Made by a program: the position numbers and the translations under genes. Of a DNA stretch of 64,000 nucleotides, positions 41,690-63,000 are shown piece by piece; position 1 is the stretch's first letter, and every line of letters starts with the position of its first letter. Below the pieces are notes generated by a model. The model saw nothing but the letters and a program-made list of their open reading frames with translations, made no database searches and had not been told where the DNA came from. This stretch comes from Escherichia coli (GTDB taxonomy: Bacteria; Pseudomonadota; Gammaproteobacteria; Enterobacterales; Enterobacteriaceae). Location: the NCBI RefSeq assembly GCF_022846255.1, contig NZ_AP025682.1; one strand, 5' to 3'.

Positions 41690-44326
41690 TTAACGACATT
41701 CAGCTGATAGCTGGGTTAATAACTGCTGCTGACTCTCTGGTGGCAGTTGATAATTGGCGACACAGTGAGCATTTTCCTCTTCTCCCCATTTCACCTGCAC
41801 TTTTCCCGCTAAAGGCATTCCGCTGAGGTAAACCTGACCATTATCCGCAACAATGCCGCTACTCTGGCTACTCTCTGATGTCACCATCGCCCCAAACGGC
41901 AGCGGCTTATTATTGTGGGTTAGCGTCATGAGCAGTTTTATCCCAACGCGCGCTTTAAACTCTGCTCGCACGATCGCCCCACGGGTGGGAACAACGTTAG
42001 CGACCGCGTTATCTAAATCGACGTTATCAGCCAGGGTATTGGTATCCAGCGCTACTCTGTTTTCCCGATATTCAGTGGCATAAGGCAGCACGGCATAACC
42101 GCGCCAGTCGGTACGCACCCCCGTCTGGTTTTCGACTTTTGCATCTTTTGCGCCAGGCGCTTTAACAAGCACCACCGTATCGTTTAACGGCTGCCCCAGC
42201 GTTACGCCATTGGCATGAGCCAGTACCCCACCGCTGACTCCGTAATAGAGCTGCTTAATATCATCGCTATGGCTGTAACCGATATTGGCATTGCCGTAAC
42301 CACCGCGATAATTCAGCGTGGCGTAGCCTGTACTTCCGCTATTACCATCGCCTCCCCCGGCATAGCCGGTTTGCACGCTATAGCTGAGGTTGTTGTCTTC
42401 CAGCAACGTACCGTATACACCAGCCAGATTGGTCATCCGACCGTTGAGATCGTGTGACATGCTGTAGCTGGCACTGGCATGTCGCCACTGAGATTTACTG
42501 TCAGAACGCAGCCAGTGGCTGAAAGGAATATTGACGTTAAGCGCTAACATCTGATCACGTCCTTTTTGCCAGGCGTTTTTCGTCAGGCTATAGCTGAGCG
42601 TCCAGTTAATATCTTCGAACGCAGTATTTAATCCAGCCTGGAATTGCTCATCGACATTACTCGTTCCCCAATAAGTTTGATGGCTACCACTCAAATACAG
42701 TGTTGATGTGCGCCCGAGTTGCTGAGTAACGGTGAGTTGTAATTTCCCGCGTTTGTTATAAGCGAGATTGTAATAGTCGGTGAATTTCGGCTTAACCTGA
42801 ATAACACCATCCTGTGTTTCGATGTTGTAGCCATTCATTCGACTGTATGTTGTATCAGCGAAATTAAAATACCCACTGGTCGAATAACGGTAACCCACTA
42901 ACTGAATATTCGTGCCTGACTCATTGAGCGATTTGTTATAGAGAAAACGCACCGATTGTCCGTCATGCTGACTGTCATCGGGAAGTGTGGAATTAGCCTG
43001 CGTCATATCCACAGACAGAGCGCCCAGTGCCCCCATGTTTTTCCCGATACCGAAATTAAAAGCACGATAACGATCCGCCAGTTGCGTTCCACCATATATT
43101 GTCCAGCCAGCCGGAAGGCCGTGGAGTAATGTACTCTGGAAAAAGCGGGGTTTTTCCTGTTGCGCATTTCCACTACGGTATTCTCCTGCCGTAATGGAAT
43201 AACGTGTATGCCCTTCACGCTGCAAAAGCGGGACTGACGAATAGGGTACGGTAAAAATCTGCGTACTGCCGTCAGCCTCTTTAATCGTTACCTGCAAGTC
43301 ACCACTATTACCTGCGGCATAGATATCGTTGATGGTAAAAGGCCCCGGTGGCACCGTACTATTATAAATGTCATACCCATTTTGTTTAATAGTGACCTGT
43401 GCAGTACCACGAGCAATACCGTGGATCACCGGGGCAAATCCTCTTTGGCTATCGGGTAACATATTGTCATCTGAGGCCAATTGTGCGCCGCGAAAGTTAA
43501 TACCATCGAAAATATCGCCCTGAGTATAACCATCACCCAGCGTCAGCCGGGAACGTAACGGAATTATGTCTCGCTCAAGCCAGGTATTGATATGCTGCCA
43601 TTTATTTTTGCTACCTGATGAACTGTCGCTACTGTTATAACTCCAGGTGGTATTGTCGCGTAAACGCCACGCACCAATATTTAACCCACTCTGTAGGTTT
43701 AAATATGCATAATGGCTGTTACCCCCAATTCGATTCTGTACACTATTTCCGCTGAAATTATAATTGAGCAATCCGGCATTAATACCGGGATCCCATAACT
43801 CAGGAGGAATATAACCACGCGCGCGATTACTCATAAATGCCTGAGGGATCGTCAGGTTGAGTCGCTGCTGACCCACATCCAGTTGCGCAGTAGCGTCATG
43901 GATCATTGAGGTTAATGGCACGCAGGCATCATCCGCCAGCAGATTCATACCGGAGACAGAAGCCGTATTCAGCCCCATACTGGCAAGTTGCGCGCGTGTC
44001 AGGCAGGGAACAATCCCTTGTTCGCTGTCGCCCGTATTAAATGTGACATCACGCGTTGCCATATAACCATTATTCAAATAGATATCAACACGATACGTCC
44101 CTGGCGGTAATTCTTGCCCATTTTCAAAACGCGATAAATCAGCCACAGCCTGGGGATCATCCGCTAAAAAACGCGGGTTAAAATAGAGTTCGGCAGATGA
44201 CAAAGGTGCCTGTGCGGCAAAAGCACAGGCAACAAAGAGTCGGACAAAAAAACCAGCCAAACGATGCTTACGAATATGCAAGCATTGTGTGTTTCGCTGG
44301 TAAAGTCTTAAATTCAGATATGACAT
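41690..44326 (-). CDS. fimD: Type 1 fimbrial outer membrane usher
   Basis: 878-aa usher-family protein. Confidence 0.95.
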   Translation of the reverse strand: MSYLNLRLYQRNTQCLHIRKHRLAGFFVRLFVACAFAAQAPLSSAELYFNPRFLADDPQAVADLSRFENGQELPPGTYRVDIYLNNGYMATRDVTFNTGDSEQGIVPCLTRAQLASMGLNTASVSGMNLLADDACVPLTSMIHDATAQLDVGQQRLNLTIPQAFMSNRARGYIPPELWDPGINAGLLNYNFSGNSVQNRIGGNSHYAYLNLQSGLNIGAWRLRDNTTWSYNSSDSSSGSKNKWQHINTWLERDIIPLRSRLTLGDGYTQGDIFDGINFRGAQLASDDNMLPDSQRGFAPVIHGIARGTAQVTIKQNGYDIYNSTVPPGPFTINDIYAAGNSGDLQVTIKEADGSTQIFTVPYSSVPLLQREGHTRYSITAGEYRSGNAQQEKPRFFQSTLLHGLPAGWTIYGGTQLADRYRAFNFGIGKNMGALGALSVDMTQANSTLPDDSQHDGQSVRFLYNKSLNESGTNIQLVGYRYSTSGYFNFADTTYSRMNGYNIETQDGVIQVKPKFTDYYNLAYNKRGKLQLTVTQQLGRTSTLYLSGSHQTYWGTSNVDEQFQAGLNTAFEDINWTLSYSLTKNAWQKGRDQMLALNVNIPFSHWLRSDSKSQWRHASASYSMSHDLNGRMTNLAGVYGTLLEDNNLSYSVQTGYAGGGDGNSGSTGYATLNYRGGYGNANIGYSHSDDIKQLYYGVSGGVLAHANGVTLGQPLNDTVVLVKAPGAKDAKVENQTGVRTDWRGYAVLPYATEYRENRVALDTNTLADNVDLDNAVANVVPTRGAIVRAEFKARVGIKLLMTLTHNNKPLPFGAMVTSESSQSSGIVADNGQVYLSGMPLAGKVQVKWGEEENAHCVANYQLPPESQQQLLTQLSAECR

Positions 44327-44391
44327 TATTCCTCCGGTTTAAATCACCCGGCAGTCAATTCTTTTTATTCAGGCGAAAAAATCCCCCTGCG

Positions 44392-45117
44392 TTATTCCAT
44401 TACGCCCGTCATTTTGGGGGTAAGTGCGCCATAATCATTTATTGTTCGGTAAGTAATATTGCTTCCTGCATCAGAAGGCAATTTAACCGCGCTTTCGCCC
44501 ATTGGAGGCACCAATGCATTTTCAAGAACCCGAGTTCCGGCATTCAACTCTGTTACCGTCAGGTAATAGGGTGTCGGGTTGATCAGCGTCAGAGAATTCG
44601 CGCTACGACGAAATCTTAATTTTTCTGCGGCCTGATCGGGTGGCAACGCTAATTTAGCCGGACGATAGTACAGTTTAATGCGGCTGATAATTGCGAGCTG
44701 TAGCGTATTCTCAGTCAATTTTGATTTATCCATTGACGGAATCGCTTTAACATTCATCCAGAATAAACTTTCCCGATCCTGTGGCAATTGGTTATTTGTT
44801 GCATCAAGAATACGCAAGGTATTCTCTTTTTTTCCCTTCATCGCAAACAGAGGTGGCGTCACGATAAAACGGCCATCCTTTACACCATCGGCATTTTCTA
44901 CCCATGATTGAATTAAATAGGTGCTATTTTCATCATTATTTGTCACGGCAAGTTGCACTTGTTTTTGCCCTGCCGGATAAATTACGCGAGTCGCACCTAA
45001 GGCCACTCCCGCTTCAGCGCGTCCGGCAACCATCATTGCCATGAACATCAGGATACCTGCCAGCAAGCAGAATGTTATTTCCTGCGATTTCCTTACATTG
45101 ACGTTTTTATTACTCAC
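44392..45117 (-). CDS. fimC: Type 1 fimbrial periplasmic chaperone
   Basis: 241-aa PapD-like chaperone. Confidence 0.95.
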   Translation of the reverse strand: MSNKNVNVRKSQEITFCLLAGILMFMAMMVAGRAEAGVALGATRVIYPAGQKQVQLAVTNNDENSTYLIQSWVENADGVKDGRFIVTPPLFAMKGKKENTLRILDATNNQLPQDRESLFWMNVKAIPSMDKSKLTENTLQLAIISRIKLYYRPAKLALPPDQAAEKLRFRRSANSLTLINPTPYYLTVTELNAGTRVLENALVPPMGESAVKLPSDAGSNITYRTINDYGALTPKMTGVME

Positions 45118-45153
45118 TGTCCTGTTCCTGTTATCACATTATCTGCTGAACAA

Positions 45154-45693
45154 TTACTGATAGGTTAAAGAGAACCAGGCCTGGGCATTGGCGATGCCGC
45201 CAGTAACCCGACGCCCGGTAGCACGATATTTGGCGATGAAATGTAGCGAAGTAGAGCCTGAGTAAAGCCGTTTCCAGTTTACTGGAGGACGATTAATCGG
45301 TACGAGGTTTCCTTCATCATCAAACAACGCTACGCCAATATTGGTGGCTATCCCTGGCCCCTCTCCCACGGAAAGCACATCCGGATTTTTACCATCCGCG
45401 ACACCGTGAAACGCCACACCCACACGTTCACTCACCACCGTGCTACATTCCCGTAAATGAATAACAAAAGGCACCGGTGAGCTATCTTCCCCTACCGCAT
45501 GAAACCGGTTACTGCTGATTTGCCCCATATTGACCGTCATTTGTTTATCACCGGCTTCAATCCGGCAAGCTTCCGCAATAATGACGCCCTGAAATTGCAT
45601 ATTTCCGCCGGGCAGCGTGGTATTCCATTTATTTCCGGCCAGAGCAAACATTGGCAGCAACGACGCTAACAGAAATAATCTCTTCCTTTTCAT
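45154..45693 (-). CDS. fimI: Fimbrin-like protein FimI
   Basis: Start placed at [19 protein letters not shown] (signal peptide); the track ORF extends upstream to 45825. Confidence 0.85.
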
Positions 45694-45757
45694 CGTTATT
45701 TTTATCGCACAAGGGTGGGCATCCCTGCCCGTAATGACGTCCCTGAACCTGGGTAGG

Positions 45758-46312
45758 TTATTGATACTGAACCTTGAAGGTCGCATCCGCATTAGCAGCA
45801 CCTGGGGTTGCAGCACCGGTTGCAAAATAACGCGCCTGGAACGGAATGGTGTTAGTACCGTTATTCAGGGTTGTTTCTGCACTAAATGTCGCACCGTCCA
45901 GCGTCAGCTCATTACCTGTTCTGTCCAGAATCTGCACGCCAACGTTTGTTGCGCTACCCGCAGCTGAACTCTGTAGAGCCAGGACTTTAGGATGAGTACT
46001 GTCAATCGCCGTCCCCAAGAAGGCAACAGCGGCTTTTGTGGCAACAGTGGTATCGCAATCATTCAGCTGAATGTTAAAACCGACAGCAGAGCTGGTTGCT
46101 CCAGCCTGCTTCAAAGTGGCGGTACGAACCTGGCCCAACTGAACGGTTTGATCAACAGAGCCTGCATCAACTGCGCAAGCGGCGTTAACAACTTCCCCTT
46201 TAAAGTGAACGGTCCCACCATTTACCGTCGTGGGTGTAGTATCAGCCAGAGCCGCTGTAGAACTCAGGGACAGAGCCGACAGAACAACAATTGCCAGAGT
46301 TTTAATTTTCAT
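45758..46312 (-). CDS. fimA: Type 1 fimbrial major subunit
   Basis: [23 protein letters not shown] signal peptide and conserved C-terminal ...[15 protein letters not shown]; the internal region is allelic relative to the K-12 sequence as I recall it. Confidence 0.95.
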
Positions 46313-46431
46313 ACTGCTTTCCTTTCAAAAAACTATTTCTAAATCGACATGGGCAGTCGTTCTGTACACTTTGTTTTGTCAACGAGTTTGACTGCCAACA
46401 CTGCACAGTTTTCCCCCAAAAGATGAAACAT

Positions 46432-46745
46432 TTGGGGCCATTTTGACTCATAGAGGAAAGCATCGCGCACAAACTTTTTCAGTTTATTTGTTGGCTTAAT
46501 GTTCTATGGTTATCTTTATTTGCAGTTTTTTATATTGCATGAGGTGGTTTTTGGAGAGAAGAATGAGGAAGTTGCGTCGAGCTACAGAAACGTTAGCTTT
46601 ACATATAGCGGAGGTGATGTGAAATTAATTTACAAGAGAAATAATTTACATATCAAACAGTTAGATGATTTTTGTCGTTTTTTAATATTTTTATGCTTGA
46701 GAAAAAATACGTAACTTATTTATGATATAGACAGTTTGGCCCCAA
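46432..46745. promoter_or_regulatory. fimS: fimS invertible element (314 bp) flanked by 9-bp inverted repeats TTGGGGCCA, carrying the fimA promoter; orientation as assembled appears phase-OFF
   Basis: IRs ttggggcca at 46432-46440 and tggccccaa at 46737-46745. The best sigma-70 promoter inside (TTGAGA 46697-46702, 18-bp spacer, TATGAT 46721-46726) is on the + strand and reads toward fimE, away from fimA. Confidence 0.8.
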
Positions 46746-46792
46746 TTGTCTTGTATTTATTTATTTTTTAAGTTTATTATCAATAAGTTAAA

Positions 46793-47389
46793 TCAAACTT
46801 CTTCTCTTTTTAATTTTTCGTTTATGAGATTATTTCTTTCCCATAATCCGGCAAAACGAGCAGCATTACTGGCGGTATAACGCACAGTATGGCGAATATT
46901 TCGATGCCCGAGATAATCCTGAATTAAACGGGTATCTGCACCACGCTCCGCCAGTTCATAACCGCAAGCATGCCTTAACATATGAGGATGAGTCTGCGTT
47001 ACGGTTCCAGCTTCAATACCGGCATCGCGAATAATGCGATAGGCCTGCTGGCGAGAAAGCCGACTCCCGCGGCGAGAAATAAATATAGCGTCGGTCCGGT
47101 CAGCACCTTTCCAGTTAGCACGTTCCTGGGTCCAGCGTTCCACAGCTTCACGCTCATCAAAACGTAACGGGTGAACGGTAGAAAATCCGTTCTTCAGTCG
47201 GCGAATATTTATTCGACCTTCATTAAGGTCAAGATCCTGATAATGCAGATCAAGCAGTTCACTAATACGCATCCCATGCCGATATGCCAACAGAATAAGA
47301 CAATAATCTCTGGCTCCCGTTGCCCCGTAACACACCGCCTGCATCATGGCCTGAACTTCTTTACCGGTAAGATAACGACGTTTACTCAC
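46793..47389 (-). CDS. fimE: Tyrosine site-specific recombinase (ON-to-OFF inversion of fimS)
   Basis: 198-aa lambda-integrase-family recombinase adjacent to fimS. Confidence 0.95.
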   Translation of the reverse strand: MSKRRYLTGKEVQAMMQAVCYGATGARDYCLILLAYRHGMRISELLDLHYQDLDLNEGRINIRRLKNGFSTVHPLRFDEREAVERWTQERANWKGADRTDAIFISRRGSRLSRQQAYRIIRDAGIEAGTVTQTHPHMLRHACGYELAERGADTRLIQDYLGHRNIRHTVRYTASNAARFAGLWERNNLINEKLKREEV

Positions 47390-47866
47390 AATAGTAGTAC
47401 TCCTGACTGAGATATATTTGAATGAATACCTATAGGAAACCTCAATCGGTCAAAATTAGCCCAATAGATAAAAAGATAACCACACACGAAGTGATGTGGC
47501 TATCAGTCAATTACATTAAATATCATACAAAAATAAAATATCACTGATGTGACAACATCTATTTTCATTGATTTGATTCAATATAACAATAGATTGCAGT
47601 GGATTAACTTCCAGTTGCTTAAAAAATAAAGAAAAAAGTATGAAAACAGGCGAATTTAAGTGATGTGTAAATTTATGAATGATTTTGTTTATTTATTTTG
47701 AAGAACATAAACCATTGTATTTTGTATGGATATGGTTAACTTAATGTTTATTATGATAATTAAGAATCATACTTACAATAACATCAATTAATAAATGGTT
47801 AATCATTTTTGATATATCGTAAGAATAATGTAGTTTTTAACACCATCCCTGGTATCTCAACTATCT

Positions 47867-48469
47867 CTATAAAACAGCGTGACGCTGTCGTCCTCTGGCT
47901 CTATCCCAGATGCCGTAAAAACGCCCTGCATTGCTGGCGGTATACCAGACAGTATGACGAATATTGCGATGTCCAAGATAATCCTGGATAAGTCGCGTAT
48001 CTATTCCCATATTCGCCAAAGCAAAACCACACGAATGGCGTAACATGTGCGGATGAATCTCCAGTGACAACCCGGCATTACCACCGGAAGTCGAGATAAT
48101 ATGGTAAAACTGTTGCCGAGAAAGTGGATTCCCCTTACGTGATAAAAATACCCACTCGCTCTCAGCATGCGGATAAGAAGTACGGATACTCAACCAGTTT
48201 TTTAAAGCCTGAATTTCTTTGTTCAATAGCGGGTGCGTTGTTGAAAAGCCTTTTTTTAATCGATGGATATATATACACTTTGCCTTAAGATCAATATCCG
48301 AAATCCTCAATCGGCAAATTTCACTCGCCCGGAAACCATGAATAAAACAAAGTAATGTCAGACAATAATTACGTGCAGCATGAGGCCCGGTATTTGCTGC
48401 TTTAAGGAGTGATTCGATTTCACTATGGGTCAGGAAGTTCCTTTTTTTGTTATCAGCCTTATTCTTCAT
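47867..48469 (-). CDS. fimB: Tyrosine site-specific recombinase (bidirectional fimS inversion)
   Basis: 200-aa paralogue of FimE. Confidence 0.95.
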   Translation of the reverse strand: MKNKADNKKRNFLTHSEIESLLKAANTGPHAARNYCLTLLCFIHGFRASEICRLRISDIDLKAKCIYIHRLKKGFSTTHPLLNKEIQALKNWLSIRTSYPHAESEWVFLSRKGNPLSRQQFYHIISTSGGNAGLSLEIHPHMLRHSCGFALANMGIDTRLIQDYLGHRNIRHTVWYTASNAGRFYGIWDRARGRQRHAVL

Positions 48470-49494
48470 CGTTTTCCCTTATAATTACAGACGCGCACTA
48501 GCTGTGCTGGGTTAGCAATAATCCAACATTTTAATCCTGATTATGTTTATAAAAGCGAACGTTTGCTTAATAACTAACGTAAGTGGACCAGTTCTTCTGA
48601 GTGAACTTAAATGGAGTAGCGATAGTTACTTATAATAACTTTGCCATACAAACGCCATGCTCTTGCATGCTATGTATCTTTATATATTTATCAATCTGAT
48701 ACGAATCGAATAATAACCCTCATCATTAATGCAACTAATCTTATCTATATATCATGTGATATGTTCTGTAACAAGTAAAATCAACATAAAAAATTCAGCA
48801 AAATTTAATATTTGTTCAACTAGCCGTCTCACATATGACATTATTAGTCAACTGCATTTGCCACAAAATGGCTATTTCATGGAACACAGTAATTTCTTAG
48901 TGGCTATTATCATGCTAATGCTTAGGTCCCTAGCGATTATTCCTGCCTGGTTCGTCAGCTTACGCCATGAGATTGTTACATTCCTTTTTCAGACTGTGTA
49001 TTTCCTGGAGATATGGGGGAACGCAGGAGACGCTTTTTCATCTACATTCGTTGGTAAATATGGCTTTGGTCACTGCGACTTAAACCTTCCTCAATCACAG
49101 CTATTCGCCGGGCGATACGGCAAACAAACTATCTGAAACATCATCCTGAAAACACCAACATCTACAAGCCTTTCCAGATCGACTTCAGGGATGACCACTT
49201 ACAAGCCAAAAACCAGGAAACATATTTCATGATGAGAATTATGATCAGCCTGATGGCGGGTAAACACTTATTTTCACCACGCTCACTGAGTTAGCTTGCA
49301 AAGCTTCCCTTGTTTAGACCCTAAATAAATCATTTATAAAACAAATAGTTAAAAGAATGCCTTTAGTTTTTGAAGACCACCTCAAGTGTTCGTCTGGCTT
49401 CACATGGCATCTTCCTCTTAGAAAAAGATCGACATATTTTGTGACACGAATTGCAAATCTCGTTTTGTTGTATGGATTGCGTGATTTTTGATCT

Positions 49495-49509
49495 GGTATA
49501 ACAGGTATA
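49495..49509. promoter_or_regulatory. NanR-type operator: tandem GGTATA repeats (GGTATAACAGGTATA) in the fimB-nanC intergenic region
   Basis: Two exact GGTATA hexamers spaced by 3 nt, followed by a degenerate third (GGTGCA); NanR is known to bind GGTATA repeats controlling nanC and fimB. Confidence 0.55.
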
Positions 49510-49933
49510 AAGGTGCACCGCGATAGTCAATGAGACAGGGCATCTCGCAATCTATGGCAAACATCACTTCAGTTCTTTCTCATCGGGTGATGAAAACGCA
49601 CTTCAGTCTGAAAGGAATATGAAAATGAGATCAACAGACACTCTATTTTATGACTCTGGGTAAAATGGATTGAGTAAGTGATATAGCTTACAAACATTCA
49701 AATCAATTAAACATCAGAAGAGATTTTATACTCAGGTATTTAATCTGGTTCTCTGTTTATTTAAATAATGTGGAAAGAGAATTTTCACAGGAGACCTTAT
49801 ACAAAAAATATAAAATACAGCTACTCGTTGCCAAAGACACTATAAGCCTGGCAAAAAATATTACACAACATAAATGCTAATTGTTTATGCGGGCTTTGTA
49901 TTGCTTTCTGTATCCTACAAATGAGTGAAATAT

Positions 49934-50650
49934 ATGAAAAAGGCTAAAATACTTTCTGGCGCATTATTACTGTGCTTTTCGTCACCACTGATTTCTCAGG
50001 CTGCGACACTGGACGTACGTGGTGGATATCGTAGTGGAAGCCACGCCTATGAGACTCGACTCAAAGTCAGTGAGGGATGGCAAAATGGATGGTGGGCAAG
50101 TATGGAAAGTAATACCTGGAATACCATTCATGATAATAAAAAGGAAAATGCCGCACTCAATGATGTTCAGGTGGAAGTTAATTACGCGATTAAACTTGAT
50201 GATCAATGGACGGTGCGCCCGGGAATGTTAACGCATTTTAGCAGCAACGGCACACGCTACGGACCCTACGTAAAACTGTCCTGGGACGCGACAAAAGATC
50301 TTAATTTTGGCATTCGCTATCGTTACGACTGGAAAGCTTACCGACAACAAGACTTATCCGGTGATATGTCTCGTGATAACGTTCATCGTTGGGATGGATA
50401 TGTCACTTACCATATTAATAGTGATTTCACCTTCGCATGGCAAACGACGCTATACAGCAAACAGAACGATTATCGCTATGCAAACCATAAGAAATGGGCG
50501 ACGGAAAATGCATTTGTTCTACAATACCATATGACGCCCGATATTACGCCATACATAGAATATGACTACCTTGACCGTCAGGGTGTTTACAACGGCAGAG
50601 ATAATTTATCGGAAAACAGTTATCGCATTGGTGTGTCATTTAAACTGTAG
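49934..50650 (+). CDS. nanC: N-acetylneuraminic acid outer-membrane channel (KdgM-family porin)
   Basis: Signal peptide MKKAKILSGALLLCFSSPLISQA and beta-barrel-like sequence; an alternative GTG start at 49925. Confidence 0.9.
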   Translation: MKKAKILSGALLLCFSSPLISQAATLDVRGGYRSGSHAYETRLKVSEGWQNGWWASMESNTWNTIHDNKKENAALNDVQVEVNYAIKLDDQWTVRPGMLTHFSSNGTRYGPYVKLSWDATKDLNFGIRYRYDWKAYRQQDLSGDMSRDNVHRWDGYVTYHINSDFTFAWQTTLYSKQNDYRYANHKKWATENAFVLQYHMTPDITPYIEYDYLDRQGVYNGRDNLSENSYRIGVSFKL

Positions 50651-50669
50651 TAGACAGGAGACAGTCACA

Positions 50670-51776
50670 ATGAATAAAACAATAACAGCGCTTGCTATCC
50701 TAATGGCTTCATTTGCCGCAAACGCGTCTGTATTACCGGAAACTCCTGTGCCATTTAAAAGTGGTACCGGAGTAATTGATAACGACACTGTCTACATTGG
50801 TTTAGGTAGCGCTGGTACGGCATGGTACAAGCTGGATACACAGGCCAAAGATAAAAAATGGACAGCGTTAGCTGCATTCCCTGGCGGACCGAGAGATCAA
50901 GCAACCTCTGCATTTATTGATGGCAATCTGTATGTGTTTGGCGGCATTGGCAAAAACAGCGAGGGCTTGACTCAGGTATTTAATGACGTACACAAATACA
51001 ACCCCAAAACCAATAGCTGGGTTAAATTGATGTCGCACGCGCCGATGGGCATGGCGGGCCATGTGACTTTTGTACACAACGGCAAGGCTTATGTTACTGG
51101 CGGTGTTAACCAGAATATCTTCAATGGCTATTTTGAAGATCTCAACGAAGCTGGAAAAGATTCAACCACTATAGATAAAATCAACGCCCACTATTTTGAC
51201 AAAAAAGCAGAAGATTATTTCTTCAATAAGTTTCTGTTGTCTTTTGATCCCTCTACACAGCAATGGAGTTACGCTGGCGAATCTCCCTGGTACGGAACGG
51301 CTGGTGCGGCGGTTGTGAATAAAGGTGATAAAACCTGGCTTATTAATGGCGAAGCCAAACCAGGATTGCGAACGGATGCCGTATTTGAACTTGATTTCAC
51401 CGGTAATAATTTAAAATGGAATAAGCTTGCTCCCGTCGCATCACCAGATGGCGTCGCTGGCGGTTTTGCAGGCATGAGCAATGACTCACTTATATTTGCC
51501 GGAGGGGCCGGATTCAAAGGTTCACGAGAAAATTACCAGAACGGTAAGAACTATGCGCATGAAGGCCTGAAAAAATCATATAGCGCTGATATTCATCTTT
51601 GGCATAACGGGAAATGGGATAAATCAGGCGAATTATCGCAAGGTCGGGCCTACGGAGTATCATTGCCCTGGAATAATAGTTTATTAATTATTGGCGGTGA
51701 AACTGCAGGCGGCAAAGCGGTGACGGATTCAGTTTTGATTTCTGTGAAGGATAATAAAGTCACAGTACAAAACTAA
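50670..51776 (+). CDS. nanM: N-acetylneuraminate mutarotase (Kelch-repeat beta-propeller)
   Basis: ATG at 50670 with an aggaga SD; signal peptide MNKTITALAILMASFAANA; the track ORF extends upstream to 50562. Confidence 0.9.
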   Translation: MNKTITALAILMASFAANASVLPETPVPFKSGTGVIDNDTVYIGLGSAGTAWYKLDTQAKDKKWTALAAFPGGPRDQATSAFIDGNLYVFGGIGKNSEGLTQVFNDVHKYNPKTNSWVKLMSHAPMGMAGHVTFVHNGKAYVTGGVNQNIFNGYFEDLNEAGKDSTTIDKINAHYFDKKAEDYFFNKFLLSFDPSTQQWSYAGESPWYGTAGAAVVNKGDKTWLINGEAKPGLRTDAVFELDFTGNNLKWNKLAPVASPDGVAGGFAGMSNDSLIFAGGAGFKGSRENYQNGKNYAHEGLKKSYSADIHLWHNGKWDKSGELSQGRAYGVSLPWNNSLLIIGGETAGGKAVTDSVLISVKDNKVTVQN

Positions 51777-51840
51777 CGCTTCAGGGCCCCGGTAAAGGGG
51801 CCCTGCTATCAATTTGTCATTTGTATTACGCGAAAATTAT

Positions 51841-52821
51841 ATGAACGCAATAATATCGCCCGATTATTACTATGTTCTTACCGTTGCTGGTCAGTCTAAT
51901 GCCATGGCGTATGGCGAAGGACTACCATTACCGGACAAGGAAGATGCGCCTCATCCCAGAATTAAACAATTAGCGAGATTTGCGCATACACATCCCGGAG
52001 GCCCGTCATGTCACTTTAACGACATTATTCCACTGACTCACTGCCCACACGATGTTCAGGATATGCAGGGTTATCACCATCCTCTGGCAACGAATCATCA
52101 AACACAGTACGGCACCGTTGGCCAGGCACTGCATATAGCACGGAAATTACTGCCCTTTATTCCTGATAATGCAGGGGTTCTCATCGTTCCGTGTTGCCGT
52201 GGCGGATCGGCTTTTACCGCGGGCAGCGAAGGGACATATTCAGAACGGCACGGAGCCAGCCATGATGCTTGTCGTTGGGGAACGGATACTCCGCTGTACC
52301 AAGATTTAGTCAGCAGAACGCGAGTCGCACTGGCAAAAAATCCGCAGAACAAATTCCTCGGCGTATGCTGGATGCAAGGCGAATTTGACTTAATGACCAG
52401 TGACTACGCGTCACACCCTCAACACTTTAATCATATGGTTGACGCCTTTCGTAGGGATCTAAAACAATACCATTCTCAGCTTAATAAAATTACTGACGCG
52501 CCGTGGTTTTGCGGCGATACCACCTGGTACTGGAAAGAAAATTTCCCTCATGCGTATGAAGCTATTTATGGCAATTATCAAAATAATGTTTTAGCCAATA
52601 TTATTTTCGTCGACTTCCAGCAACAAGGTGCAAGAGGACTGACGAACGCGCCTGATGAAGATCCAGACGATTTAAGCACGGGATATTACGGTTCAGCGTA
52701 CCGGTCACCGGAGAACTGGACGACGGCACTGCGAAGCAGTCATTTCAGCGCGGCAGCCCGTCGGGGGATTATTTCTGACAGGTTTGTAGAAGCAATTTTG
52801 CAGTTTTGGCGCGAAAGGTGA
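51841..52821 (+). CDS. nanS: 9-O-acetyl-N-acetylneuraminate esterase
   Basis: Product begins MNAIISPDYYYVLTVAGQSNAMAYGEG... (SGNH-like esterase motif). Confidence 0.9.
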   Translation: MNAIISPDYYYVLTVAGQSNAMAYGEGLPLPDKEDAPHPRIKQLARFAHTHPGGPSCHFNDIIPLTHCPHDVQDMQGYHHPLATNHQTQYGTVGQALHIARKLLPFIPDNAGVLIVPCCRGGSAFTAGSEGTYSERHGASHDACRWGTDTPLYQDLVSRTRVALAKNPQNKFLGVCWMQGEFDLMTSDYASHPQHFNHMVDAFRRDLKQYHSQLNKITDAPWFCGDTTWYWKENFPHAYEAIYGNYQNNVLANIIFVDFQQQGARGLTNAPDEDPDDLSTGYYGSAYRSPENWTTALRSSHFSAAARRGIISDRFVEAILQFWRER

Positions 52822-52874
52822 GCGTTCATTAATTTGATTTATTCGCATCCATCAACGCTTTTAACTGCTCCGGC

Positions 52875-53626
52875 GTGCGGCACTATAATGGTTTTCACAA
52901 CAAGGAGCCATTTTCTTATACCACTTTCAGAGACCATCCGCTTATGCCACCGCCCTCTACGCAACTGTTTGCAGAGCACCTTCCCACCGAGTGGATACAG
53001 CACCTCCTGACGCTTTCTGCTCATGCGACCATTTGTCGTCTTAACCTGAGCGCGGATGGCGAAGCGGGGATTAGCCTGCTGGCCCGCAGCGCTGTCACCC
53101 AGGAGCGCCAGCGCGTGGGGGCCCCCTGGTGGAATGGCTCTTCCGCCAGACCGCACAGACATGGGGCGCGGAACGTTACCTGAAGGATGACTGGCACGGC
53201 CTGCAACTTTTTGCCATTGATGGCGCACAGTTCAGGACACCTATGAACCTGAGTTGCGCGAATATTATGGCTCTGCCAACACATCCACTGAGCGGCAGAG
53301 CGCCTACCCGGTCATGCGTCTGGTGGCGTTAATGAATCTGGGAATCACATTCTGCTGAATGCCATGACCTCGGCCTACCGGCGGAGCGATACAGCGTGAG
53401 GCAACTAAAGCGGCGTCAGAAATCAGCTTTAAGTTCGCATTCCAGTTTATCGTGACAGAAATGATAGTGCAGGGAAATACGGCGTCACCAGGAACCATCC
53501 CGAAACGGCTGGAGCATCTGCGGGGTGCTCTGGAAGCGGTGTTCCCACGACTATCAAGGCCGAGGGCTGTTAAGGTATCAAAAACCCGTTATCCGGTGAA
53601 ACACAGTGCCGCCCCGCTTAAGTGAC
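52875..53626 (+). mobile_element. Degenerate IS4-family transposase remnant (frameshifted, internally deleted; no intact DDE core)
   Basis: Three frames carry stretches resembling the IS4 transposase N- and C-terminal regions (SAVTQERQRVG; TAQTWG...LQLFAIDGAQFRTP; AYPVMRLVALMNL; AVFPRLSRPRAVKVSKTRYPVK), interrupted by stops. The comparison is from memory of IS4 InsG. Confidence 0.55.
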
Positions 53627-53794
53627 GGCATTGTGTTTCTGACTGGCCTTAACTTTCCCTGAATCTCTGACGATCCTCACCATTGATATTTTCTTCATTC
53701 CTCACCAGAGAAATAAAAAATCACTATACTCATCAAAATATGAGATTACATTTATTCAGGCGATCACCTTACTATTTTATACGGAAAATAAATC

Positions 53795-54445
53795 ATGAAT
53801 ATCCGTCAATCATTACATGACCGAATCTATGCAGAATACCCTCAACAGGCTAAAGATATATTACTGTATTTCCCCACTTATGAAATTATGCCATCGACCA
53901 TAAAAATGGTTATGATTAATGAGGTGGTAGCTATAACACCGCAAGAAGATTTTTATACACCAGAGTCTGGTTATTTTACGACTGTCGCCCGACAGTTAGC
54001 GCTGGCTGGATTATCGGCAAGTAGTGGCGAAGTCTTACTCAACCATGGTATCTACCTGACCTCCGCACTGAAACTACCTAAAACACAGATCACAGCCACA
54101 CCCGCGGAGATCATTCTCTGGTCACCTATTGTAGAATGGGAGCTCGAACTCTTTGCCAATATAAAAGTTATTTTCGTTGGCGGCGATATCGCGCGAAAAT
54201 GCCTTAACATCATCGCGAAAAAGCAAACACGTAAACATGCCATCCCTTCAACTCCGACGTACAAACTGATGAATAGCGAATTAGTCTGGAAAGGAATAAG
54301 CATACTTCCTGGATATATTCTTACCGGAAAAAACCTGCTCATTGAAAAGTCAAAAATCGAAATGAATGTCGAACAATTAAGAAAAGGAATTGCGATTTAT
54401 CGCAATAGTAACAGTAACCATACGAATAATTCAGTTCATGAATAA
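53795..54445 (+). CDS. Hypothetical protein (216 aa) in an AT-rich islet; possible distant uracil-DNA-glycosylase-like fold
   Basis: ATG at 53795; clean 216-codon ORF in a markedly AT-rich segment between the IS4 remnant and the helicase operon. The order of conserved-looking blocks is reminiscent of UDG-superfamily topology but without a canonical GEGPG motif. Confidence 0.5.
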   Translation: MNIRQSLHDRIYAEYPQQAKDILLYFPTYEIMPSTIKMVMINEVVAITPQEDFYTPESGYFTTVARQLALAGLSASSGEVLLNHGIYLTSALKLPKTQITATPAEIILWSPIVEWELELFANIKVIFVGGDIARKCLNIIAKKQTRKHAIPSTPTYKLMNSELVWKGISILPGYILTGKNLLIEKSKIEMNVEQLRKGIAIYRNSNSNHTNNSVHE

Positions 54446-54958
54446 GAGATGAATCATTAATAACAAGAAATCACTGACAAACCACCTGTAAAAGGTCAAT
54501 CATTTTAGTTCAATTTCCTTTGTCATGATTATATTTTTATCGTCCTGACGATACTATTAACAATTACAATATTTATACCCTCCCCTGAACAAACAGAAAA
54601 GAACTCATACATTCGTTTATAATTCTGGTAATCCTGGCATCATACGTTTAAAATTTAAGGTGTTTGTTTTATAATCATGATTCCAAAGACTATTGGTCAC
54701 CAGAAAATGCCAGCCTTTTCGTGCCAGCTATATTTGTCCAGTGTGTTACCCCATCCAAAAATCATCCACATCCTGATGTTACGTTAGATATAGAGAAAAC
54801 AGGTTGTACTGTGCAATATGCTAACCGCATAAGCGAATATAATTTCTAAGCTGATATTGTCTGGCTGTTGGGAGCTAAACAATATAAATATCGCCAGTTG
54901 CCAGAACGGTTATATAGACCAGGAGCGTTTCGGCTCCTGGTCTGTTTCGGACATATTA

Positions 54959-57073
54959 TCAATCAGCCACTAATAGCGGACTAGGGATACCAGATGATGA
55001 AACAAACAGCCCTTTTACGGCACGGGTTGCAGCCACATGCAGTAACGCGCGCTCATTAAATAATGCATCACGCTGTTCAACGGGATCATCGGATGCTAAT
55101 GCTTTTATTTCCGGCACAACGCCTTCGTTAATCCCCACCAGGAACACATACTGGAACTCAAGCCCTTTAATACGGTGCATCGTTGCAACTCGCACGCCTG
55201 GGCGTTCATCGCTGTCACCGCTATCATTGCCTAAATTAAATGTCTCAATTCCGGCGTCATTGAGTGCTGATGCGTAGCGGTCGCAAGCATGTTTAGTACG
55301 CGCAGTAATGCAGATATCCTGAGAACGAACCTGACTCGCCAGCAATGCCTGAATTTGCTTGACGAGTGTTGCAGCCTCTTCTTTGAAATCTGCCGCATGC
55401 GTAATCATGGGCTTTTCCCCGTGCAGTAATGACAAATAATCATTACTGGTATCCGCTTCGCCATCGAGGTTATCAACCTTCACACCAGTTAACAGCCCAA
55501 CAGCAAATTGACGCGTCTCTTCTGTGGTCCGATAGTTAATCTTCAATTTTTTACTGCGACGACCACGGACGTTAATACCACACTGACCAAGAACGACCTT
55601 ATTGCGATAAATACGCTGATGCCCATCCCCGACAATAAACAGATCGTTGGGCGACTCGGGAACCAGGCTGCGAATAAGAGTAAATGCCGGGGCACCGATA
55701 TCTTGAGCTTCATCGACGACAATACTGCTATAAGGTAGTTGGACCTGCTTTTCTTTAAACAGAACAATAGCCTCATGCATGGCATCGCCCATTTCGCGCA
55801 GTTTGGCACGCGCCATTTGTGCTCTGAATTCTTCGAAAACTGGCCAGATTTTCGCCCGTTGAATACGGGATAACGCTGTACCACGTCCAACCCGGCTGAC
55901 TTTGAGGTATTCCTCCCGGGTGTAAACCGCATTTGGCTGGACAACGCGTTGCCACTCTTCAGCATAGAAATTGTCAGGTAGCCCCAGTTCGGCAGGTGCC
56001 TGCTGCAAGGCATAGTTCCAGCATTTACGTCGCCCTTCATCGCTGTCGTATACCACGCGGAAATCATAACCGTGGCGTTTTAGTTGGTCGCTCATCCAGG
56101 CATCAATGTTAACGACGTCAATACGCGCCATCTCTTCTCGCGTACACAACCGCTGGAGATTAGCGCGAATATCTGCCGCCAGGTTACGCGTAAAGGTCGT
56201 GAAAAGTACCTTCTTACCGGGTTTATCTGCCAGACGCTGAGATAACCACCGCGCACGGTGCATTGCAACAACCGTTTTCCCTGTACCTGCACCGCCCAGT
56301 ACTCGTACCGGACCATTAGCGGGCGACTCCACCAGTTTTCGCTGGCTCGGATGCAGAAATACACGCCATTTTTCTAAAGGCGCATTAAGCATCTGCAACA
56401 GCTCCTGTTCATTTTCAACGACATGGAAGCGACGTTTACTTCGTTCAATCGCCTCCATAAAGTCGTTGGTATCAACAGGCTCGTCACGATGATCGTTAAA
56501 CTCTTCCAGCACTTCCTGGTAATCCAGCCCTTCTGCCAGCCAATGCAGGGGTTCCCAGGCTTCTGCTGGCATTATGCTTTCAAGTTGATTAAGCCCGGCT
56601 TCATCGGTAAGCGCCATCACCTGATCAATAAAGACAGGCGGCACACCCAGGGCCAGAATCTGTTCCGCGCTGTAAGCTGCGAAGAGTTTCGGTTTATCTA
56701 GCACCGTTTCCGCCGCCGGTTTGATATAGCTAATATCAATAACCTGAATTGCGCCGGTAACCGGGTGAATTGAACAATCATGCCGCCGCGCCCAGTCGTA
56801 TGCTTCGTCGTGTTTATCCACCCACATCAGCATATACAGGGCACCCTGTTCAGGTTTCAGAACAATGCCGCGATAAGTTTGATCGATTCGCACCGAATGG
56901 ACATTTTTACTGCGCGCATCGTGGATCTTTTCATAGTTAAGTCCATTACTGGTCGGGTCCTGACGGAATTTGGAGATGAATTCCTGCACCTTTTTTTGCT
57001 GTGCTTTTGGGATCCGCGCGAATGCGCCCAGAAAACCATCAGAAAGTGCCACCTTGGGCGTTTGCACCGTCAT
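54959..57073 (-). CDS. UvrD/Rep-family (SF1) helicase, 704 aa, with an uncharacterised ~230-aa N-terminal domain
   Basis: Walker A GGAGTGKT (aa 260-267), motif II IVVDEAQDIG, motif III-like VGDGHQRIYR, C-terminal TMHRIKGLEFQYVFLVG. Its start ATG overlaps the stop of the 2113-aa gene by 4 nt (57070-57073). Confidence 0.8.
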   Translation of the reverse strand: MTVQTPKVALSDGFLGAFARIPKAQQKKVQEFISKFRQDPTSNGLNYEKIHDARSKNVHSVRIDQTYRGIVLKPEQGALYMLMWVDKHDEAYDWARRHDCSIHPVTGAIQVIDISYIKPAAETVLDKPKLFAAYSAEQILALGVPPVFIDQVMALTDEAGLNQLESIMPAEAWEPLHWLAEGLDYQEVLEEFNDHRDEPVDTNDFMEAIERSKRRFHVVENEQELLQMLNAPLEKWRVFLHPSQRKLVESPANGPVRVLGGAGTGKTVVAMHRARWLSQRLADKPGKKVLFTTFTRNLAADIRANLQRLCTREEMARIDVVNIDAWMSDQLKRHGYDFRVVYDSDEGRRKCWNYALQQAPAELGLPDNFYAEEWQRVVQPNAVYTREEYLKVSRVGRGTALSRIQRAKIWPVFEEFRAQMARAKLREMGDAMHEAIVLFKEKQVQLPYSSIVVDEAQDIGAPAFTLIRSLVPESPNDLFIVGDGHQRIYRNKVVLGQCGINVRGRRSKKLKINYRTTEETRQFAVGLLTGVKVDNLDGEADTSNDYLSLLHGEKPMITHAADFKEEAATLVKQIQALLASQVRSQDICITARTKHACDRYASALNDAGIETFNLGNDSGDSDERPGVRVATMHRIKGLEFQYVFLVGINEGVVPEIKALASDDPVEQRDALFNERALLHVAATRAVKGLFVSSSGIPSPLLVAD

Positions 57074-60000
57074 TTGTCACCTCCGGACAGATGTTGCAAT
57101 GTATTTTCGTCAATTGGCCCGAATGCTACGTGCCAACCCCTGGTTGTGAATAATGGAATAAATTCTTGATTATCAATAATCAATGCCCATTTTTGTGATG
57201 GCCAGGCGAGATCGGCTTCCGCAATAATTTCCCCCTCATCATTTTGCAATTCGTAGCCGAGAGTCGGCGCAGAGAGAGAATGAGACTGAAGCAACGCGAT
57301 CTCTTCAGCGCTTAATAAGCCAAACTCAATAATCTCAGCCCAACTCTCATCAGTCTCTGGTACTGCCTCTGGCGTTGCCGAAACTTTAGTGTCAACGCTT
57401 TCCTGCGGTAAATGCACGGCTTTACGGCTGGTAAAGGTTATATCCGGCAGGAACTGTAACAGGTTTACCAGTCGCCAGAAGCCATTGAGTCCCGCTTCAT
57501 AACCGTCATCCTGCGTATAGCGATCGTCAAAACAGATATGCAAACGCAGCCAGCTGCGCATTTGTGCGACACTGGTCGTCGGTTTAATGGCTTGTTGTGG
57601 CAACACCGAAGCCAGCTCAATAAATTGCTGCGATGAGTTACAGCTATCGAGTAAACCACCAAAGACAAACGGTTCGTCTGGCAAAAGCTCTGCTAGCCGC
57701 CAGGCTGGCGCGTTTTCCTGCATTTCATAGGCATACTTTTGTTTCGTTCCCGCGTCCTGTGACTTCTTCACATCCAACCACACCCAGGCATGTGCAGCAG
57801 CCATTTTCTGCCATAACTGCGTTCTTCCTCCCGGATCGGCGAGATAATCCAGCAGCAGTGCAAAACTGTTGCGTTCCCGGAACGACGCTTCAAGGGCCGC
57901 AAAGTTGGTATCGTGAAACAGGTTATAAAACTTAGGCTGTTTCATATCCGGGTTATGCCCAAGCCCCAGGACATCCTGAACATGTTTAAGCCCAGGCTCT
58001 TTGAGATCGGCCCACGTGACTGTCCACACCCAGAAATTATCGCTATCCCGAATCGCCTGGCGTTTTTGCACATCCTCTGCGACGCTATTTTTGTGAAACG
58101 CAAAGCCATCAAGGAAAATAGCTACCGGTTTAATGGCATCAGACTGCATAAGCGGATATAGCACGTAATCCGGGCGACAAGGGATCCCCACCGCCTCTTT
58201 AGCGCCTAAATCCACCTGAGCTTTAAGATGCCAGCTCATCATCGGTTCGCTGCGGGTGTTAATAATCCACCCAGCGCCCTGATGCGCGTAACTGCGACTG
58301 ACAATCAGGTTTTTATTTTCTTGCAGGCAGCTAATAAACCGTTTTTCCAGCTCACTGCCCATCATGGCTTCGAGGGAAATGTTTTTGATGGAATCAATTA
58401 CCCGTATCGAATCTCTTGCCTGCAAAATTTTCGCCAGCAAGAGACGCGCCTGATCGCGGGAGACATACTTCATGCGCCCACGGTCACGGTAAGCGTAAAC
58501 GCAACGATAACAACCATCTTTATGCGTATCATGGTTGCAACTGCATTCCACTATCGCCTGATAGGCCAGTTCAAGTAATTTCAGCAAATTGTCGGGAGTG
58601 CGCATCAGCTCTTTAAGAGAACCAGTTCCCCCCGGGACGGTATCGTAAATCACCAGATACTGCCGCCAGGATTCGCCTTCATTTTCCGGCTCGCGGTACA
58701 CAACGCCTTTCAGGTGATCGACATTCCCCTTGAAGTAATGTTTAAGACCTAGCTGGATCGCCGCCCCAAGAGAAGCCTCCACGACACGGTCATTACTGTA
58801 ACTGCTTACCGGGAGCAGAATACGCAACGCTTCTGACTCCAGCTGGCGATAGAGATAGAGATAATCTTCGAACTTCGCCTTTTCGGGTTCCGTGCGATAT
58901 TTGCAGCTCAAATCATGACGGGGTTCATGATCGCGAGGACGCTGTACCATGCCGCACCCGAGGCAAACTTTAAACCCGGTTCGCTTCTTCGCTTCTCCGG
59001 CAATCATCAACTCATTGGCATCATCCGCCATTTTGCCGAAGTTGATATCCCGCAGGGTGACTTTGCTTAAAAATTCAAAACCAAACGGAACTTCGCCTTC
59101 CTCAATCGCGTATGCCGCCGATACATCTTCTTTTTCGAAACTAACCAATAGCTGACGCTGGAAGAAAGCAGGTTCACGGCTGTCGCTCTCGTCGCTGATC
59201 TGGCTATCACGTGCGCTGGCGCGGGCATACACCTGGCGAAGTTTCAGCAGCGTGGTTTTTTGTCCGGCGTCGGCCCACCCCGGTGTGCCACATTTCGGGC
59301 AATATTTATGCTGGTCGCCCGTCTGGTCGATATTTTCGCTGTAGTTACAGTGGCTACAGATACGCCAGTTCTCCGGCTCAGAGACCTTCAGGTCTATCTG
59401 CTCAATTTCAACTTTATGCCCACCGGCATAGAAATTATTCAGCGGAGCCAGCTCAGCCAGCGCCGTTGATGCCGGGCGTTCATATTCGAAAGTGGTGTTT
59501 TGATATTCACGTGCTTCCCCGCCTTCTTTACGCCGCCAGAGCACAGAACGTAACGTAATACCGGCTTCCGGGAAGGCGTAGTTAGGCAGCAGACCTTCAT
59601 CCGTGAGGAAATTCAGCGTCTGCTTATTGTTGATTTGATTGACCAGCGCCATCAGCGCCTGCCGTTCTGAAGTTAACTCGCGCATATCGCTGTCAAAGTT
59701 TTGATCGCGCGGCGCGTTCTCCAGCTTATCGATACTGCGCTTGAGTTTATCGATGCGTGAACGCAGAGATTTGCGATCTTCCACCAGCAGTTTTAACGCC
59801 TCTTCGATACGCTGCACCAGAGAGCGTTGTCCTGGCGCGCCCTGAAGATAAGACAACAACTGTTGGCGAGTTTCTGCGGCAAGATCGGGGAAGATCGCCG
59901 TAAATTGTGCAGCAATCTCCGCATGATGCTGTTCGATATATCTCAGTAAGTTATACGGAAAACCCGATTTACGCCCGAACTCCAGCTCATCCAGCATCTG

Positions 60001-63000
60001 TTTGACGTTTTTACAGATAGCGGATTCTGGTACACCGGTTTTCACCCAGTTATCCATACAAAAAGCTGCCAGCTGGCGTTCGAGAATAGCCGTTGCATTG
60101 AGGAAGACGCCAGGAGCCTGCACCTGGCCCTGCATCATCTCCAGTGGTTCTTCAAAGAAAAACTGATCGTGCGGGTTCCCTTCTGCCACGGTAATGTTTA
60201 ACGCGTTACCATCTTTACGACCGGCGCGACCAATACGCTGCAAGTAGTTGGCCTGAGCAGGTGGGACAGAACAGAGTAAAACGGTGGAAAGATCCCCAAC
60301 GTCGATACCCATCTCCAGCGTCGGTGTTGCCGACAACAGGTTGATATTCCACGGTTGGTTGCCGCGGTAGAACGATTTTTCGGTGGCTTCGCGATCTTCA
60401 CGGCTAAGCAGCCCCGTGTGTTCTGCGCCCTGCACGCGCGCGATGTCCATGTTCTCCCAACGCCAGGTCGCCGTATTGTCGACTTCCTGGTAACGACCTT
60501 CACAACGTAAAGAGAGACAAGGCGCATTACGCCACTGCCACCCTTGATCGGCCGGAGCCCGGACAACCTCACGGCAACATGAGCAATTAAGCTGAACGAC
60601 GTCACGGCTCACCACCAGCGCCGAAGGCACCAGTCCCCAGGCTTCACGCCCTTTGGTGTCAAAATCTTTTACTACTCCGGCTATTTTCAACGCCGTAAAC
60701 AGGCGTCGTAACACCGTTTCCGCAACGCTACTGATAAACAGATTATTGCCGTTACTCAGCGTGCGATTGATCCAATGCTGATACCAACTGGGGTTAGACT
60801 TCGCGCCAATCAGGCGATGGAAACCATTAATTTTTTCAAACGACGCGTAAGCCGGTTTACGCGTTTTCGGACCGATAGAAGGCATATAGCGCGAGGTACG
60901 CTCTTTTTGCGTCATCATAAAGGTCGTGCCATCACGGCGATAACTTTCGAACGCCGGATGCATAACGGCCCCGGCCTGGCGTTGATACCAGATAACCCCC
61001 AGCGCCAGGTGCGCTACCTGCTCGACGCTCACACCGGACATCTCATCACCCAGCTCTTCACAAAGCTGTTGATGCAGGGCGGTAATTGCCGGATTAAAGC
61101 GATCTTTATCCACTCCAGCAACGGCATAACCGGTGGCTTCCAGCGTACGTCCGATACGCGCGCGCAGGGTGAATTCGCTGTACACCTCCCAGTCGAGGCG
61201 CAGGGAAACCAGCTCCGGCAGATCGGAGTTCTCCGCCAGTTTGCCTTCATTTTTCAGTGTCTGATAATCATTCAGCCACTGCATATTTGGTGCGATGAAG
61301 TTCGCTGCAAAATGAGCATCGTCCGGTGAACGTTCACGCGTTTGTTGGCAAACACGCGCCGCGAACGCATCCAGCGGTAATGTCTCTTTTTCGCCAAGAA
61401 CACTGGCGATTTGCCCACGAATCATCAGCGGCCAGGTTCGGGCAGTAAAAAAGCTGGCACGATGCGCGGCGTCTTGTACCGAGTCAGAAAACGTAATCAG
61501 CTTTTTATGTTCGTTGAACTGGCTGCCATAAAGCTGGTGAATCATCACCGCCGACAGACTGGCAGCCCGTGACCCCAGAATCGAAATCCCCTGTTTGCTG
61601 TTGCAGTACGGGCATTCATTAGCAAACTCCAGCTCGTCCTTACGCTCTTTGAGCATATCTGGGATCAGTACCTGCAACAGCTCTGTATGACCACAATGTC
61701 CACACTGGACGCTGGACTGTCGGTTCAGTTTCAGGCAGGTAGGGCACAGTTTCTGGTGTGCGCCACTGACCGCTTTTTCGTTGTTATCCGGGAAAGCAAG
61801 GACGATGGAGCGCCCTTTTTCAAAGAACTGGCGATAAATGCCGTCGAGGTCTGTTTCCAGCTGAACGCTTTGCCCATGACGCAGGCTGGCCCAGCCGGTT
61901 GCGTGGCAGTCACGGCAGTGGATAACCGGCAAATAGTGTTCGCGATCTTCCACCGCCACATCATCGGCAAACACCAGTCTCGGTGTTTTCGCCACGCTGG
62001 CGACCAGACGACGCATCTCACGAAGCCACAACTGGGAGCGCAGTTGCACAAACGGCAGCACCGGGCGCGCTTTCTTCGCCTGGAGACGTTTTTGCCGATC
62101 GTGGTCCGTTTCCGGTACTTCGAGACGTGCCTGCGCGATCAGCGCCAGAATGCTTTGCAGCACGCGTCGGGCATGGTCGGCGCTTTCTGCCAGCATGACC
62201 TGGAGATTTTCCAGACACTCTCGTTCAGAGAGGATCCCGCCTTGCAGATCATGGAGTAAGACATGCATCACGCTGTGGCGGCGTAACAGTGACCCCAGCG
62301 CAATACGCTTTTCACGCCCGTCGTCGCTCTCCAGATCGTCCGGGAGTTGCAAGTCGCTGTCGGGGAACCACAAAGGGATTTGTCCGTTGAGATACGCCAC
62401 CGGGGTAGCGTAACTCTGCGGGTCCAGGGCCGAAGCGACCTCCGGCCCCGGATACTGACTGTACGCAATGGCGTAATCCTGCAAGTACTCCGCTGCCGTG
62501 TAGCGATCTTCGCGAATAACGGCGTCATCGGTAAACGGCTGGTCAAAGATTGTTTTTGCGTAATCGAGCAGTTGCCCCAGTTCGTCGCCGACGGTCGCTG
62601 ATGTCCCGACGCAGGCGAATCGTTGGTTATCTACACCTATGTGATGCTTCAGACGTCGCACCAGACAGGCCAGATCCGACCCTTGCGCGCCATCAAACGT
62701 ATGCAATTCATCCACGACCAGGTAACGCAATGAACCGGGCTGGTTGTAACGCCAGAGCGGCTGATCGCCAGGGCGCATCAGCAGGTAGTCGAGCATTTTG
62801 TAGTTGGTCAACAGGATGTCCGGCGGGCTTTCGCGCAGCGTGTGCTTACAGGTAATGACCTTTTCTGCCGACATTTTTTTGCTGGGTTCGATTTCGCTGT
62901 CGCCGACAAACAGGCCGACGGTCACCTTGCCATGCAGTTGTGGATCGCTGGCGATGGTTTTGGCGAAACGGCTGGCCTGATCGGTTGCCAGGGCGTTCAT

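Follow-up and report, generated by a model that had tools for sequence, protein, structure and literature searches.

The window analysed here, a 64,000-nt stretch of Escherichia coli DNA (NZ_AP025682.1), carries a fim locus in which a 314-bp segment at 46432-46745 lies between fimE and fimA. The products of fimE, fimB, and fimA matched NCBIfam models, all above the curated cut-offs, and the ORF map placed fimI, fimC, fimD, fimF, fimG, and fimH further left, as far as 39712. The genes and the features in and around the segment are the following:

45758-46312, minus strand: fimA, major fimbrial subunit of 184 aa, cut off from its promoter (NF011741, 190.8 bits)
46432-46745, no strand assigned: fimS invertible element (exact repeats, MG1655 homology, BstUI and SnaBI patterns)
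46432-46440, plus strand: IRR, the fimA-proximal 9-bp repeat, TTGGGGCCA, a repeat sequence also found in PMC8777976
46651-46663, plus strand: perfect IHF consensus match, WATCAANNNNTTR, at the IHF-2 position inside fimS
46697-46726, plus strand: fimA promoter hexamers facing fimE, 10/12 consensus, conserved in MG1655
46737-46745, minus strand: IRL, the fimE-proximal 9-bp repeat, reading TTGGGGCCA on this strand
46778-46790, plus strand: perfect IHF consensus match at the IHF-1 position, in the flank by the fimE-side repeat
46793-47389, minus strand: fimE, intact tyrosine recombinase, ON-to-OFF (NF007371, 451.7 bits)
47867-48469, minus strand: fimB, intact tyrosine recombinase, both directions (NF007370, 458.4 bits)

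The initial annotation described a 314-bp element with intact 9-bp inverted repeats, and our analysis confirmed all of its coordinates and found the two repeats to be exact. The sequence TTGGGGCCA occurs exactly twice in the whole window, and the two copies bound fimS and are mutually inverted. Such a pair is by itself within chance, since at least two copies appeared in 18 of 100 shuffles. We regard the feature as real because of its homology and context, not because of motif statistics. When reverse-complemented, the region 46282-46845 was collinear with fimE-fimS-fimA of MG1655, with a mean column identity of 96% in the alignment, and the two fimS elements were identical at 302 of 314 positions (12 substitutions) and in the same orientation. 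The MG1655 element (NC_000913.3 4542682-4542995) has the same 314-bp length, 9-bp repeats, and gene order (fimB-fimE-fimS-fimA), and its orientation relative to the flanks is that of the window. FimE is identical to its MG1655 counterpart at all 198 residues (100%), and FimB is identical at 199 of 200 (99.5%), while FimA has 182 aa in K-12 and 184 aa in the window. This homology ruled out a chance inverted repeat despite the weak motif statistics. The arrangement also corresponds to the published definition of fimS as 314 bp between 9-bp inverted repeats (PMC8777976, PMC9993118). The segment is the E. coli fim switch itself, neither a relative nor a variant.

Similar promoter-inversion logic is found in the fimS/FimB-FimE system of Klebsiella pneumoniae and in the flagellar switch with RecV of Clostridioides difficile (PMC5386303, PMC12435677). 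All of them have a regulatory segment that can invert between short inverted repeats, lies upstream of an operon for a surface structure, and has a dedicated tyrosine recombinase. However, the sequences and recombinases of these two switches differ from those of the window. The fim switch, known since 1985 and under continuous study, is a textbook case of promoter inversion, and finding fimS in the OFF state is ordinary biology. Rfam and tRNA scans of the entire window gave no match, so no RNA element rivals the fimS explanation.

Several minor sequence features were observed at the element. The 9-bp repeats extend into a 22-nt pair with 77% complementarity (46419-46440 and 46737-46758), and a further 16-nt inverted repeat with 88% complementarity (46712-46727 and 46775-46790) straddles the fimE-side 9-bp repeat, so that the promoter -10 region, within fimS, pairs with the IHF-1 consensus site, which lies in the flank. 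The 16-nt and 22-nt repeats may be recombinase half-sites, or they may have arisen by chance in AT-rich DNA. A 71-aa ORF (46499-46714, plus strand) lies wholly within fimS; it comes from a mechanical listing and carries no gene evidence.

The proteins and sites needed for switching appear to be in place. FimB acts in both directions and FimE acts from ON to OFF, together with IHF and Lrp (PMC9993118, PMC11316696). FimB and FimE, which are encoded just upstream, would recombine the 9-bp repeats and thereby flip the 314-bp promoter segment. In the published layout, the IHF-1 site adjoins IRL outside the element and IHF-2 lies inside (PMC9993118), and the IHF consensus sites of the window coincide with these positions. 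Both are predicted sites and represent 2 of the 6 perfect consensus matches in the 64-kb window. Since FimE matches its K-12 counterpart fully (100%) and FimB does so at 99.5% identity, the strain is likely to be switch-competent rather than locked. The RefSeq annotation of MG1655 also includes a small RNA, FimR2, immediately downstream of fimA (PMC9723502). It occupies 2875-2909 of the MG1655 comparison sequence, and the equivalent in the window is at about 45700-45757 on the minus strand.

The consensus scan placed a -35 hexamer, TTGAGA, at 46697-46702 and a -10 hexamer, TATGAT, at 46721-46726 on the plus strand, separated by an 18-bp spacer and with 10 of 12 consensus matches. The hexamers and the 18-bp spacer are identical in MG1655. 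This putative promoter adjoins the fimE-side repeat at a distance of 11 bp. The frequency of such motifs was not above chance, with 2 promoter-like sites in the region against 1.8 ± 1.5 expected from shuffles of this AT-rich DNA. Both the placement and the direction given for the hexamers in the initial annotation, on the plus strand and pointing at fimE, proved correct, and fimE and fimA are both on the minus strand. The accompanying statement that this was the only near-consensus promoter was slightly overstated, as a weaker 9/12 promoter-like site (TTGATA-18-TAAATT, 46656..46627, minus strand) lies within fimS and faces fimA. This second site overlaps the internal IHF consensus site and is at chance level for AT-rich DNA; in principle, a basal level of fimA transcription might arise from it when the switch is OFF.

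The assignment of the fimA promoter rests on the conserved hexamers and on the calibrated restriction assays described below, and the position of its exact start would follow from the same evidence. We infer promoter activity, the start site, the recombination mechanism, and Rho termination from established knowledge. In the parts of the Cappable-seq (PMC4782308) and SMRT-Cappable-seq (PMC6131387) supplements that were available, there was no entry at MG1655 positions 45426xx/45427xx or at fimE/fimA, and a literature text search for the promoter hexamers together with fimA returned nothing relevant. In ON cells the promoter points to the structural genes, and in OFF cells the transcription of fimAICDFGH is abolished (PMC2636892). 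In the assembled orientation, the promoter would sit beside the fimE-proximal repeat and fire toward fimE. Because it reads away from fimA, fimAICDFGH would be left without a promoter and type 1 fimbriae would not be formed.

The orientation was assigned with two published restriction assays, in which populations are scored as phase ON or phase OFF by their BstUI and SnaBI patterns (PMC9993118, PMC4374849, PMC13276309). The sites concerned are as follows:

46464-46467, no strand assigned: BstUI site CGCG, near the fimA-side repeat in OFF and giving 188 and 539 bp
46708-46713, no strand assigned: SnaBI site TACGTA, inside the promoter spacer, cut at 46710/46711 to give 442 and 161 bp

With primers OL4/OL20 and BstUI, the reported sizes are 539 and 187 bp for OFF and 433 and 293 bp for ON (PMC9993118). 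In silico, the window gave 539 and 188 bp, MG1655 gave 540 and 188 bp, and the window with 46432-46745 inverted gave 434 and 293 bp. With primers Inv-1/Inv-2 and SnaBI, the reported sizes are 440 and 161 bp for OFF and 403 and 198 bp for ON (PMC4374849, PMC13276309), and those obtained in silico were 442 and 161 bp for the window and 198 and 405 bp for the inverted version. The phase-OFF orientation proposed initially was therefore borne out, as both published patterns were those of OFF and the ON patterns appeared only after 46432-46745 was inverted. The suggested SnaBI digestion, run here in silico on a site that lay where it had been placed, gave the OFF sizes. A reference alignment had been named as a possible source of contradiction; it showed the window to be collinear with MG1655, which is consistent with OFF. 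In all, four independent lines agree on the OFF call, namely BstUI, SnaBI, a natural ON reference, and strand composition, and the direction of the promoter also corresponds to OFF, since the conserved TTGAGA-18-TATGAT faces fimE and not fimA. Taken together, 46432-46745 is almost certainly the classical E. coli fimS switch, assembled in phase OFF.

Rho loads on C-rich, G-poor transcripts, and the strand composition of fimS is of interest in this respect. The relevant feature is as follows:

46537-46621, minus strand: C-rich, G-poor stretch with 30 C and 9 G in 85 nt, candidate Rho-loading region

Across fimS as assembled, the fimE-sense strand contains 66 C and 37 G. In 78-nt windows of this strand, the C/G ratio reached up to 4.0 as assembled and fell to as low as 0.24 if the element was inverted, so that this strand is rich in C and poor in G only as assembled. 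A terminator scan of 46250-46900 predicted no intrinsic terminator, as would be expected if fimE is terminated by Rho and not at an intrinsic site. Previous work describes a Rho-dependent terminator that fimE mRNA encounters in the OFF state of fimS but not in the ON state (PMC5386303, citing Joyce & Dorman 2002; PMC9993118), and the composition seen here is consistent with such an OFF-specific terminator. With the C-rich face lying on the sense strand of fimE, the transcripts of this gene should run into the terminator. They should thus end inside fimS, and the level of FimE would be lowered in OFF cells.

The OFF-oriented fimA promoter itself might also be active. Transcription from about 46733 would then cross the fimE-side repeat and IHF-1 and enter fimE in antisense from its 3' end (from 46793), helping the Rho terminator to hold FimE down in OFF cells or modulating the access of recombinase or IHF to the repeat. 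We consider this doubtful, though conceivable. The idea of convergent transcription from the fimA promoter and fimE is old in outline and, if true here, would refine a known circuit without opening a new one.

A natural phase-ON counterpart was found in strain FHI_NMBU_03 (NZ_CP019455.1), the best match to the inverted query among the complete RefSeq E. coli genomes. Both of its 200-bp flanks have 0 mismatches to the window, and its fimS is reverse-complemented and differs at 2 of 314 positions. The inversion runs exactly between the repeats, and the promoter adjoins and faces fimA. Comparison with an ON sequence, which had been put forward as a check on the orientation, thus showed this genome to be the inverse of the window. 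Because the flanks are identical and the element is exactly inverted, the near-identical fimS allele is, judging from these two assemblies, one that switches in nature.

The fimE-fimS-fimA junctions were present in 4720 of the 5426 complete RefSeq E. coli genomes. Orientation was counted by requiring a single collinear match of at least 80%, with the window locus and its artificially inverted version as queries, and the counts were as follows:

Window locus as assembled (OFF): 4458 genomes
Window locus with fimS inverted (ON): 249 genomes

The remaining 13 locus-bearing genomes matched neither orientation as a single collinear match. About 95% of the locus-bearing genomes therefore share the OFF orientation of the window, and these counts provide a useful baseline for judging orientation calls in assemblies. 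Similarly, fimS was OFF in all 129 Shigella genomes examined in a previous report (PMC4374849). The ON assemblies include several avian or poultry isolates, such as BEN2908 and GPEC strains.

FimE activity is dominant in wild-type cells (PMC9993118, PMC9096935). As FimE is intact in this strain, most cells in an ordinary culture would be expected to be OFF, and the consensus of an assembly would then show that state. The sequenced culture was likely to be mainly OFF, that is, mostly non-fimbriate, as the initial annotation had proposed; this follows from the ON-to-OFF bias of intact FimE and from the 95% of assemblies that are OFF. An assembly is one consensus path, which is silent on the minority fraction and is not guaranteed to be the path of the majority. 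The culture might have been a mixed population whose majority differed from the assembled orientation, the OFF path having been picked arbitrarily by the assembler, the polisher, or a reference-guided step. Finished assemblies do show both orientations, and short-read assemblers easily resolve a 314-bp inversion with 9-bp repeats either way. However, in ordinary culture, strains with functional FimE lean strongly toward OFF (PMC9993118, PMC2636892), and the prior expectation from the genome counts is the same as the observation, so that an arbitrary choice of path is improbable here and a mainly OFF culture is preferred.

It might also be supposed that the switch is genetically locked OFF by a defective recombinase, repeat, or cofactor site. 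There are precedents for this in the fimB nonsense mutations of Shigella flexneri (PMC4374849) and in the effectively OFF-locked switch of EPEC E2348/69 (PMC9096935), and one of the 12 fimS substitutions relative to K-12 is 8 nt inside the fimE-side repeat. We rejected this explanation as very unlikely, given the intact recombinases, the two intact IHF consensus sites, the exact repeats of a full-length 314-bp element, and the allele with 2 differences and identical flanks that is inverted in FHI_NMBU_03. The idea that the element is really ON, with 46656..46627 or another fimA-facing site as the functional fimA promoter and TTGAGA/TATGAT present by chance, can draw on the 9/12 site facing fimA and on the chance frequency of promoter-like matches, but it is hardly credible, being contradicted by the in silico BstUI and SnaBI patterns, in which the assembled orientation scores as OFF and the inverted one as ON, by the orientation shared with K-12 MG1655, whose laboratory derivatives have been described as fimS OFF in the ancestral state (PMC12366229), and by the OFF-specific terminator polarity, which fits the assembled orientation. 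The phase-OFF reading of a functional switch is thus retained.

Beyond correct annotation, the OFF orientation of this element matters little, as finished genomes show the OFF state by default. The sequence of the locus points to an intact and switch-competent system, and the strain would be able to make type 1 fimbriae. Accordingly, fimA in this assembly should be read neither as constitutively expressed nor as promoterless. What an assembly records of the orientation is the state of the culture at one moment and not a genotype.

The sequence further along the window differs from MG1655. Beyond nanC-nanM-nanS, two adjacent large helicase genes are located at 54959-63411 on the minus strand, and it is past nanS that the window and MG1655 part. 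One of them (57070-63411) codes for a 2113-aa protein that matched the PADLOC DruE3 model (Druantia type III DruE) with an E value of 4e-104 and has an HNH-like match at its C-terminus. The other (54959-57073) codes for a 704-aa UvrD/NERD-type helicase that matched GajB-like models. From these model matches, the pair probably serves in defence against phages, and any partner gene upstream, such as DruH, would be truncated by the end of the window. Among complete RefSeq E. coli genomes, the highest identity was 99.7% for the 714-bp fimS locus and 98.4% for the 20 kb at 44000-64000. As the latter region is at most 98.4% identical, the source strain lies outside that RefSeq collection. The same helicase arrangement was found beside the fim and nan genes in 447 complete E. 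coli genomes.
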